Of a DNA stretch of 64,000 bases, positions 25,829 to 55,919 are shown piece by piece (the first letter of the stretch is position 1; each line of letters starts with the position of its first letter). The translations under genes and the position numbers were made by a program. The DNA lies in NCBI GenBank assembly GCA_963719515.1, contig CAVRCJ010000003.1, forward strand, positions 576,001 to 640,000. The letters run 5' to 3'. The DNA comes from an uncultured cyanobacterium (GTDB taxonomy: Bacteria > Cyanobacteriota > Cyanobacteriia > CAKZMO01). Under the pieces are notes generated by a model. It saw only the letters and a program-made list of their open reading frames with translations. It did not search any database and was not told the DNA's origin.

Positions 25829-27073
25829 CTAGCCGCAAGGGTGAGCTAGACGTTTCGCACGTTTCAACGCACCGACTTGCTTCATGCTTCCGCAATCAGT
25901 AGAGGTTGATACTCGACGGCTTGAGGACAGTTCCTGCCCCTTGGCCCAGATCAAGTTGACCTGGGCAGCATTGGTATCGCGGTCCTCAACATGGCCGCAG
26001 TGCTGGCATACGTGAGTGCGCTCAGCCATTGTCTTGGGCGTCGTCTCCCAGCACACAGCACATCGCTGAGTAGGCTTAAGCTGCCGGGTAGGGGACTCGA
26101 CATAGAAGCCACCGGCCTCAGCCGACTTGTAGGATAGCAGCTTGCCAATCTCGGCAAACCCTACCGACAAGATAGAGCGATTGAGACCGGCCTTTTGCTT
26201 TTTCCGCTTACCCTTCTGGGCCTTGCGAGTCATGCCCTTGACGTTGAGTTGTTCGCCAGCAACTAGGCTGTTATCGCGTACTATGCTGCTGGTTACCTGG
26301 TGAAGCCAATCCTCGCGCTGGCGCTTCACTGTTCGCTTGCGACTAGAAATCTTTTGTTGCGCTGCTTTCCATCTGCGAGAGCCACGCACCCCACCACGCC
26401 GGTCAGGGCGGCGCTTCCTTTGCAGGGACTTGCTCAGTCGCTTAACGGCCCGGTCGCCCTCGGCGATAAATTGAGGCTTGCGCTCTTTGGTGCGGTCCGA
26501 GAACGATATGGCATCTTTGCAGCCCAGGTCCACACCGATAGCGCCTGTCCCTGTCTCCCGCACCGGGCTGCATTTGACCGTGATGCTGGTATACCACCTG
26601 CCATTCCGACAGAAGATAGTGCAAGTGGTAGGGGTGCCCCATGTGCGGGCGTTGCCGCGCATCTTGATAACGCCTAGGTTAGACAGTTTCAAGCTACCAT
26701 GCTTGCCCTCGGTGAGCGCTTTCCAGCCCGCCTTACACGGATATGTCCAGCCAGCATAAAAGCGGTTTCCCTTAAACTTTGGATATCCTCCAAGTCCCTT
26801 GAAAAACCGCTCAAATGCGAAGTCAACCCGCTTTAACGTCGCTTGCAGCGCATGACTGCCAAGCTCAGCAAATTCAGGCCATTCTGCCTTGAACGCTGGC
26901 AAACAATTCTGCTGAGCATAATAGTCAACACTGATGCCCCAGCGTTTATACATGTCGCGCCTGTCAGCTAACGCTGCATTGTATAGATAGCAATGCAAAC
27001 GTTTCCACTCAAACAGCTTACTACCCTGCTGTTTGGTCGGATATAGCCGGTAGGTGATACGTCGCGTTAGCAT
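25829..27073 (-). CDS. tnpB: RNA-guided endonuclease TnpB
   Basis: [26 protein letters not shown], zinc finger and DRDTNAA. Confidence 0.95.
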   Translation of the reverse strand: MLTRRITYRLYPTKQQGSKLFEWKRLHCYLYNAALADRRDMYKRWGISVDYYAQQNCLPAFKAEWPEFAELGSHALQATLKRVDFAFERFFKGLGGYPKFKGNRFYAGWTYPCKAGWKALTEGKHGSLKLSNLGVIKMRGNARTWGTPTTCTIFCRNGRWYTSITVKCSPVRETGTGAIGVDLGCKDAISFSDRTKERKPQFIAEGDRAVKRLSKSLQRKRRPDRRGGVRGSRRWKAAQQKISSRKRTVKRQREDWLHQVTSSIVRDNSLVAGEQLNVKGMTRKAQKGKRKKQKAGLNRSILSVGFAEIGKLLSYKSAEAGGFYVESPTRQLKPTQRCAVCWETTPKTMAERTHVCQHCGHVEDRDTNAAQVNLIWAKGQELSSSRRVSTSTDCGSMKQVGALKRAKRLAHPCG

Positions 27074-34785: not shown

Positions 34786-35234
34786 GTGACATACTCCCGA
34801 CGCTCATCTTTTAGATAGAGCGCGGGCTTCTTGGCTCACGCACCACAATTTAATGGATGCCGCGCAAGAAGGTTTCCTGCTTCATCTGGTCCTGTCTAGT
34901 TACGCAGCAAGCCGTGCAACCCCGATTAGATCCCATCGACAGGCGATTTGTTTAATGTCCAGGCAATGACCAACCCCAGACAGTGACGAGTATTCAATTT
35001 CCAGCTACGTTTTCTACCGTCTGCACTGTTCACCAGCCAAGGGCTGTACGTTTGTGTCAGGATAGCAGGCCGCCGCCATGAAATAGTTTGAGCTTGGTTC
35101 AATTGTACCCTTTGCTCGCCTCGGCGCTGCCCTTAATTGCCGCCTTCGGCATCCAGTCAAGGGCGCACCTCGACTCGCTCGCTTACATCCCGACGCTGAT
35201 GCTGCGCATACAGCGCGGGGCTTTCACGAACTAG
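34786..35234 (-). mobile_element. Non-autonomous IS200/IS605 mini-element (449 bp)
   Basis: Minus strand TTTAG|CTAG..AAGCCCCGCGCTG..CAGCGTCGGGATG (LE) and AAGCCCGCGCTC..GAGCGTCGGGAGTATGTCAC (RE); same end family as 55245-55635. Confidence 0.85.
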
Positions 35235-54491: not shown

Positions 54492-55226
54492 TTGACTAGC
54501 AAGTGCAAGATTCTAGTCGTTGACGACGAAGCGGCCATCCGCCAGATTTTGTCGACTCGCCTTGCGATGGGGGGGTATGACGTTGCTGTGGCATCCAATG
54601 GCCAAGAGGCGCTGCAGATGTTTCCTCAAGAAAACCCTGACCTTGTCGTCTTGGACGTGATGATGCCCAAGATCGACGGGTTAACGGTTTGCCGGGAGCT
54701 GCGCAAGACGTCCGACATTCCAATCATTATGCTAACGGCCTTAGGGGAGATCGCCGACCGGATTGTGGGCCTAGAAATGGGGGCCGACGACTATATCTCC
54801 AAACCGTTCTCTCCGAAAGAGCTAGAAGCCCGCATTAAGGCTATTTTGCGGCGCACGGAGCAGGCCAGCCTAAACAGCGACTCCGCCGTAGGGGTCATTC
54901 AGGTCGGAGGGCTGCAGGTAGATGTCAACAAGCGGCAGGTCTATGTCGACGGCAAGCGAATCCGCCTGACGGGCATTGAGTTTGACCTACTGCAGCTGCT
55001 CGTAAACCGCTCGGGCGAGTCTATCCCTAGGGCCGACATCCTCAACGAGATTTGGGGCTATACCCCGAGCCGCCACAGCGACCTGCGCGTAGTCGATGTG
55101 CATGTGTCGCGCCTGCGCTCGAAGCTTGAAGACGATCCGAGCAACCCAGAGTTTATCCACACTGACCGGGGGCGGGGCTACTTTTTCCCGAAGGTGTCAA
55201 CGCTGCCGGAATCGATTAGCGCCTGA
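54492..55226 (+). CDS. OmpR-family response regulator, RpaB-like paralogue
   Basis: ILVVDDE..RQIL.TRL, LDVMMP, KPFSPKEL and RVVDVHVSRLRSKLEDDP. Confidence 0.9.
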   Translation: MTSKCKILVVDDEAAIRQILSTRLAMGGYDVAVASNGQEALQMFPQENPDLVVLDVMMPKIDGLTVCRELRKTSDIPIIMLTALGEIADRIVGLEMGADDYISKPFSPKELEARIKAILRRTEQASLNSDSAVGVIQVGGLQVDVNKRQVYVDGKRIRLTGIEFDLLQLLVNRSGESIPRADILNEIWGYTPSRHSDLRVVDVHVSRLRSKLEDDPSNPEFIHTDRGRGYFFPKVSTLPESISA

Positions 55227-55244
55227 AGCGGCTCTCAACTTTAG

Positions 55245-55635
55245 CGACTAGACAAGAAGCCCCGCGCTCTACCCGCTAGGGTGAGCGTCGGGATGAGAGT
55301 CGCGCTAGCCGAAGTGCGCCCGCAAAATGATGCACAGCGGATGTGCGCTCAGCGCTGAGGCTAGCAGTTGGTATGATAGAGATAGCAAGGTGATACACCC
55401 CGCAAAGAGTGTGACGGGCCCGTAGGCGAAAGCTGCAAGTCACCCGTTCCTCAGTTTGCAAATGTATCTGCGACACATAGTGCGTATCCTCCCTCGCGGA
55501 GATGAAAATTCAAAACTCTGCCGTGGGGCATCAGGCGGAGTATAAACCTATCTCAGGATATGTCCCGGCAATAGCTGGGAGTCACTGAGGAAGCCCGCGC
55601 TGTACAGCTTGCTGTCAGCGTCGGGAGGATGTCAC
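55245..55635 (+). mobile_element. Non-autonomous IS200/IS605 mini-element (391 bp)
   Basis: TTTAG|CGACTAG..AAGCCCCGCGCTC..GAGCGTCGGGATG (LE) and GAAGCCCGCGCTG..CAGCGTCGGGAGGATGTCAC (RE). Confidence 0.87.
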
Positions 55636-55655
55636 GACTAAGTTGGAATCAGCTC
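55384..55655 (+). ncRNA. Candidate omegaRNA scaffold plus flank-derived guide
   Basis: Extended -10 at 55369-55377 and many stems ending at the IS right end; boundaries approximate. Confidence 0.5.
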
Positions 55656-55919
55656 TCCCGGACGCAGCTTGGCCCACTTGCCTGTTTCTTCCTGGAAGCT
55701 GTTGCAGCCTACGACGTCGTACTCAAAACCGAAGTCTCCTTCCTGCACGATGCGATCGCCTTTGACGCTCACTTTGGGTGGCGTGATGTTGGCGTTGATT
55801 GTGGGGCTGTCGGGCATGAAGCTCGGCGACTCGCTGAGATGGGGCTGTTGATGTTTAGTTTCCACCTCGTGATAGGTGATACAGCGATCAACGTAGTGGC
55901 AATTTATGCAAATGCACAT
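55638..55919 (-). CDS. ycf34: Ycf34 Fe-S protein
   Basis: MCICINC.YVDRC.TYH.VE..H...EYDVVGC.SF..E.GKW. Confidence 0.92.
   Translation of the reverse strand: MCICINCHYVDRCITYHEVETKHQQPHLSESPSFMPDSPTINANITPPKVSVKGDRIVQEGDFGFEYDVVGCNSFQEETGKWAKLRPGELIPT

Follow-up and report, generated by a model that had tools for sequence, protein, structure and literature searches.

The question raised by this locus is what a protein-free insertion with IS605-type ends, a promoter-like site, and a seemingly structured RNA might be doing in a cyanobacterial genome, and whether it amounts to a new system. In the window, i.e., the whole 64,000-nt stretch of DNA that was analysed (window coordinates are used throughout, on the plus strand unless stated), the element occupies positions 55245-55635, between a gene for an RpaB-family response regulator (54492-55226) and ycf34 (55638-55919, minus strand; Ycf34, PF10718). 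The genome under study is designated G000, and its relatives G002, G003, and G004. Upon re-reading of the sequence, all motifs named in the first-pass annotation were found at their claimed positions, beginning with TTTAG at 55240-55244, directly followed by the 391-nt element with its GTCAC end. This TTTAG corresponds to the TnpA left cleavage site and to the predicted TAM of the cognate TnpB. The IS200/IS605 left end (55245-55303, with a subterminal hairpin at 55260-55292) is ~90% identical to the left ends of tnpB-bearing elements, and the right end (55590-55635) comprises a hairpin at 55594-55625, a pseudoknot strand at 55629-55633, and the terminal TCAC; as in IS200/IS605 PATEs, the subterminal hairpins at both ends are common to the element and to the autonomous elements. 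Consistent with the original description, no tnpA or tnpB open reading frame (ORF) is present, the only in-frame remnants being the last 11 codons of tnpA in the left end (minus strand; 11/11 residues identical to the TnpA C-terminus) and ~28 codons of a tnpB tail. A 66-aa minus-strand ORF had no Pfam match.

The search for copies with different flanks, proposed in the first-pass annotation, revealed 53 full copies in the genome (97-99% identical; 33 distinct), with unrelated flanks. All 53 follow NTTAG (TTTAG, 47; GTTAG, 3; CTTAG, 3) without target duplication, as is characteristic of PATEs, and all terminate in GTCAC. At the window locus, the insertion site is empty in G002, G003, and G004, in which the RpaB-family gene and ycf34 lie close together. 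The element is thus mobile and multi-copy, inserting after NTTAG without duplicating its target. The empty site falls outside a long ORF for 48/53 copies vs 262/500 random TTTAG sites. Of the order's 16 other genomes, two contain the element interior (G002, 94%; G004, 86%); a plasmid search returned no match, and the layout occurred in none of the metagenome loci among the matches listed (at least 118, from a loose pattern scan), two of which passed a two-feature filter and were rejected as resembling coding DNA. Differences between copies within the genome are mostly singletons, and these copies are therefore too young to reveal selection. Polymorphisms common to several copies cluster in the left end (55245-55290), the interior holding mostly singletons, a pattern that suggests left-end exchange with tnpB elements. 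By crude ORF calls, the nearest upstream ORF lies on the same strand as the copy in 36 cases and on the opposite strand in 16, with none found in one.

Protein-carrying versions were also recovered, in the form of 19 longer elements bounded by the same ends: 15 measure 1483-1484 nt, another 1612 nt, and the three that hold both tnpA and tnpB 1780-1801 nt. For two further left-end matches, no right end lay within reach. The proteins of the longer elements scored above the NCBIfam cut-off as TnpB and IS200 transposase; 16 TnpB copies are full-length, all with the three RuvC acidic motifs, and NTTAG precedes the tnpB and tnpA+tnpB elements too. A helper tnpA, encoding intact TnpA, is hence present in the genome and no transposase or nuclease ORF in the element, again as in PATEs. 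Copy number and shared ends suggest that excision and insertion would be carried out by TnpA in trans. The window element (family A) has its target motif and scaffold type in common with the TTAG tnpB family; those of family C, another RNA-only family of this genome, are common to the TTAA tnpB family. In the left part of one 1483-nt tnpB element (L214, G000:C1), a divergent 60-aa ORF that shares the tnpA stop region replaces tnpA.

On sequence grounds, the last ~120 nt of the element are a TnpB omegaRNA scaffold of the resident tnpB family. Positions 55515-55635, into the right end, are homologous to the tail of that family (0/1000 shuffles), and the ~28 terminal codons remain readable as a tnpB tail (40% over 55 aa; E 1.5e-5, four sequences searched). 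The core (55515-55589) consists of a stem at 55515-55541 containing a pseudoknot strand (55527-55531), a stem at 55552-55556/55585-55589, and a hairpin at 55563-55580. Covariation was sought in an alignment of eight ends (two A copies, two resident tnpB elements, and, from other genomes, three RNA-only elements and one tnpB element) and was found in this 3' scaffold: 13/33 pairs have both sides changed, 89.9% of cells are paired, and the first stem has double changes in 6/7 pairs. Slid controls gave 34-48% pairing vs 90%; since the structure was read from the same eight related sequences, the shuffle control flatters this covariation. The bases preceding the terminal AC take part in a 5-bp pseudoknot, which shows 97.5% pairing in the eight sequences and, with 4/5 pairs never varying, is conserved rather than covarying; a pseudoknot adjoining the 3' end is likewise described for the ISDra2 omegaRNA in the available text of PMC10097598. 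Contigs of the relatives, read by hand, show an additional two-sided change in the first stem and a G-U to A-U change in the pseudoknot. Two pairings of the first-pass annotation, ACTCTGCC/GGCGGAGT and TCCCGGC/GCTGGGA, are backed by this covariation. The long-range CCTCAGT/ACTGAGG pairing did not hold up, having a probability of 0.11 vs 0.88 for the local CTCAG/CTGAG helix; it competes with the scaffold's own stem, and a 7-bp complement of this kind between leader and core arose in 297/1000 shuffles, i.e., at chance level.

Upstream of the scaffold, the proposed extended -10 (TGGTATGAT) was found at 55369, as claimed, giving a promoter-like site at 55369-55377 with a predicted start at ~55384; this site was not reported by a strict sigma-70 scan. 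Its variants (TGgTATGAT in G000, TGcTATACT in G002, TGgTATAAT in G004) keep the consensus positions, and a -10-like site picked by deliberate looking lies 6 nt plus 103-148 nt upstream of the scaffold in 13/13 elements compared, 10 of them with the TG. The resident tnpB genes start 6 nt downstream of the same kind of -10, and the element's site is therefore probably an inherited tnpB promoter. In RNA libraries of the relatives (three runs with small word shares; the X1 and X2 pieces are identical and were counted once), contigs cover parts of the element, one extending upstream of the predicted start; such contigs are uninformative on start, strand, and level. Between the left end and the promoter-like site, an irregular hairpin (55304-55365) is common to this element, the element at 34786, and other RNA-only elements. 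It is partly eroded in the window copy (fold z -0.4 vs -3.7 in G002), and in 50/53 copies a two-base change at 55347-55352 breaks its three-C/three-G pairing, which indicates that the hairpin was already weakened when this clade expanded.

The undescribed part of the element is the ~130-nt leader between predicted start and scaffold (55384-55514; type A/C), which is not detectably derived from tnpB. The concern that the interior might merely be decayed coding sequence was examined directly: against tnpB coding DNA, 212/1000 shuffles scored as well as the leader, and a TnpB C-terminal profile scored the leader below most of 300 shuffles, leaving it without detectable TnpB coding likeness. Potential small peptides of the leaders show no conservation. 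Comparison with Rfam, as proposed from the outset, identified no family for the element, neither at the gathering score over the whole window nor, down to E 10, over 55150-55750, ribozymes, riboswitches, HEARO, and group I introns included. The description of the RNA as densely structured applies to its 3' part: the RNA as a whole exceeds its shuffles in folding (z -3.0), but this signal originates in the scaffold (z -4.5) rather than in the front 130 nt (z -0.7). None of the leaders, whatever the family, clearly outperforms its shuffles (z -1.9 to +1.3). Of the two competing helices proposed, GTGAC/GTCAC is kept in G002 and G004 and ACGGG/CCCGT is lost in both, although ViennaRNA favours the latter in the window copy (0.94 vs 0.02); the loop of the GAAA-capped hairpin, found at its claimed position in the window copy, is lost in G004. 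Covariation in the A leader amounts to 1/31 compensatory pairs plus a paired insertion in three genomes and is not significant (176/500).

The A leader resembles that of family C (3 and 1 of 1000 shuffles), which sits on a scaffold type other than A's; their global identity is 45% and their helices are out of common register. When this genome is compared with L196/L206, identity is 85-88% in the C leader vs 73-75% in the spacer upstream and 65% in the scaffold (91-93% vs 63-64% for the scaffold with tighter limits). That the C leader is better conserved than its surroundings suggests selection rather than block exchange. For the A leader vs G002, and the B leader vs G111 and G374, the scaffold is equally or more conserved than the whole leader. 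A sequence-only RNA model of the A/C leader found it in 3 of 151 genomes, all of this genus (22 candidates scored per genome), and a scan of a genome collection gave 13 matches, among them the C-type elements L196, L197, and L206, and L198, which has the same sequence as L003; three non-cyanobacterial matches, among the seven of 13 read, were dismissed as chance. Beyond this genus, the A/C leader turned up in just three records, from assemblies of other cyanobacteria. A search of the masked genome placed it neither before a tnpB gene nor within a host gene (best E 0.55), viral sequence scans for the A/C and B leaders gave zero matches, and no account of these leaders was found in the open main-text literature.

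Family A (53 copies) is one of four RNA-only families in the genome, together with B (18 copies), C (6 copies; target TTTAA), and D (2 copies). The sister element at 34786-35234 (minus strand) belongs to family B and has the same layout, with a different leader (conserved core at 35021-35060) and a different omegaRNA type. The earlier statement that its interior bears no similarity to that of the window element must be withdrawn, as the pre-promoter hairpins are homologous (0/1000 shuffles) and the layout is the same; the A and B leaders themselves are unrelated (557/1000 shuffles). The B leader also occurs in G096, G111, G374, and G397, is ORF-free wherever the element is complete, and covaries better than the A leader (8/20 pairs in five sequences). 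Across genomes from four families (34786-35234; L065, L066, L213, L240, L237), B/D leaders contain a core of ~40 nt that hardly varies, with a 7x7 internal loop and one bulged A in its helix; no Rfam family matches it, the B- and C-type cores reaching RAGATH-18 only below threshold (B core, E 2.3). A GACAC/GTGC helix with a bulged A can be drawn in the A, B, and D leaders (window 55470-55485 and 35021-35060) and could be due to chance. A third leader type was observed on an A-like scaffold in L061 and L064 (G008 and G075); it is 88% identical between these two cyanobacterial families, with two-sided stem changes by eye. A strict end-to-end pattern matched in 6 of 400 other genomes, of which five have the same layout and one (L067, G142) resembles a simple tnpB deletion and was excluded when the 13 elements were compared. 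One further candidate (L241, G319) is a chance match in coding DNA.

We consider it likely that the element is a non-autonomous IS605-family satellite (PATE) that has lost its genes and kept its ends, a tnpB-type promoter, and an omegaRNA scaffold. The first-pass idea of a mobile RNA-only unit that provides the guide scaffold for a nuclease encoded at another locus agrees with every test performed, given the 53 copies, the cognate tnpA/tnpB elements with the same ends and NTTAG, and the covarying omegaRNA core. From the mobility, helper presence, and scaffold conservation observed, we infer the following mechanism. TnpA from the three tnpA+tnpB elements would move the satellite by peel-and-paste. 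The extended -10 would drive an RNA of ~270 nt, from ~55384 through the right end into the flank, whose 3' scaffold would be bound by TnpB from the ~16 intact copies; TnpB would then trim the leader as it does with its own mRNA, 5' processing by TnpB being described in the accessible part of PMC10278001. The guide of each copy would direct cutting of the empty allele, in which TTTAG directly adjoins the right flank, and an occupied chromosome would serve as repair template, restoring or spreading the insertion. Homing of this kind, as well as trans-acting omegaRNAs encoded by PATEs, is presented in 10.1101/2023.03.14.532601. The leader would stand in for the lost tnpB mRNA as the 5' part of the precursor, aiding stability, folding, or processing, and would be under selection in that capacity; we regard such a substitute role as the most likely one. 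Against this interpretation, a purely passive leader fails to explain why the C leader is conserved above its scaffold, and the 5' region is dispensable in ISDra2 (PMC10097598).

It is also conceivable, though in our estimation unlikely, that the leader is a functional RNA in itself and an exchangeable module, the guide function being real but half the story; such a leader could be a self-processing RNA, a scaffold-gating switch, or a site for capture or titration of TnpB or a host factor. The occurrence of related leaders on the A and C scaffold types (3 and 1 of 1000 shuffles) speaks for such a module, but the two leaders are 45% identical overall and pair in different registers. Further support comes from the C leader, a conservation island between less conserved sequence upstream (73-75%) and downstream (65%), and the B core, nearly invariant across genomes of four families and covarying in 8/20 pairs; against these stand the A vs G002 and B vs G111/G374 comparisons, in which the scaffold is as conserved as the whole leader, or more, and the A leader's nonsignificant covariation (176/500). 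A leader length of 103-148 nt in 13/13 elements also favours a functional leader, yet no leader fold rises clearly above shuffles, the proposed leader-scaffold pairing is at chance level, and Rfam offers no ribozyme or riboswitch match. Generalised, the argument would be that cyanobacterial RNA-only IS605 satellites have replaced the lost tnpB by exchangeable, active leader RNAs of at least four types (A/C, B/D, G008/G075, and G397), a proposal that we hold to be doubtful. Were it true, leaders would, for example, free omegaRNA without TnpB processing, gate the scaffold, or out-compete tnpB mRNA for TnpB protein, such that satellites take over their helper's nuclease, and they would constitute undescribed functional RNA classes as well as natural trans-loading tags for TnpB. 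At the opposite extreme, the element would be an ordinary PATE reduced to its ends, its interior a decayed left-over without useful transcription, spreading because TnpA recognises the ends. The still readable tnpB tail of ~28 codons and recent bursts, which require no selection on the interior, agree with this; we nevertheless judge it very unlikely, as scaffold stems have changed on both sides with their pairs kept, promoter variants retain consensus positions, the leader has no TnpB-coding score, and the layout recurs in five other genomes.

There is, finally, the guide of this particular copy (55636-55655), derived from the flank, which the first-pass annotation had noted as antisense to the 3' end of ycf34. 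The 20-nt flank is indeed antisense to the last Ycf34 codons, by position only. No special meaning attaches to it, seeing that the 53 flanks are unrelated and that, for 0/53 copies, a TTAG plus 12-nt guide target exists elsewhere in the genome; the absence of a second target is as expected if the empty site is the only target. A domesticated guide or antisense RNA regulating ycf34, or one guiding a new nuclease system, would draw on this overlap, and we rate either as exceedingly improbable: three relatives lack the insertion at this site, the copy is one of 53 with unrelated flanks, a converging downstream ORF is found for only 19/53 (by crude ORF calls), and, with regard to a new nuclease, Cas12k is absent from the genome and the scaffold corresponds to that of the resident TnpB. 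The overlap of the guide with ycf34 is accidental, owing to where the element inserted. A possible resemblance of the element RNA to a CAST V-K tracrRNA had served as a lead, and a partnership of that kind was rejected given the absence of Cas12k.

Returning to the satellite interpretation, the first-pass proposal of a new system does not stand, as omegaRNA-encoding PATEs and trans-acting stand-alone omegaRNAs are already in print. The omegaRNA PATEs of Geobacillus stearothermophilus, in the available text of 10.1101/2023.03.14.532601, are similarly ORF-less, with hairpin ends, mobilisation in trans, and a right-end omegaRNA that needs the TnpB of another element; an internal promoter and a conserved 5' leader domain are not described in that text, and here, the 53 copies are more numerous than the complete relatives with protein genes (19), and several families occur in parallel. 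The stand-alone omegaRNAs of OMEGA systems (as summarised in PMC10691335) are also mobilised, trans-acting RNA-only loci beside effector loci, their biological role being stated there as unknown; in the present case, by comparison, the cognate TnpB is set by shared ends, target motif, and scaffold, and a 130-nt leader is added. With the ISDra2 TnpB omegaRNA, as far as PMC10097598 is available, the element has in common a ~120-nt scaffold over the tnpB C-terminal codons, with stems and a pseudoknot with the bases directly before the guide, whereas the region 5' of it is dispensable tnpB coding sequence in ISDra2 and non-coding, conserved across elements, here. IStrons, too, carry structured RNA within IS605 ends, and an ORF-less PATE with IStron ends is mentioned in the accessible portion of 10.1101/2023.11.20.567912; the present element differs in having no Rfam group I intron match, a TCAC end, and a predicted RNA start that is internal and not at the left end.

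Many cyanobacteria are polyploid. This genome, with 53 near-identical RNA-only copies, 16 intact cognate TnpB copies, three genes for the transposase, and three additional RNA-only families, each having its own type of scaffold, would be a clean test set in which to ask whether homing into empty chromosome copies is achieved by satellites with borrowed TnpB and whether the leader aids loading in trans. If it does, this matters for TnpB guide design; if the leader is inert, the element is an ordinary PATE.

Two additional, distant tnpB homologues lie in the window, at ~1350-2480 and 25950-27070 (G000:C3 577335-578477 and 601949-603073), with 24-29% identity to the resident families.
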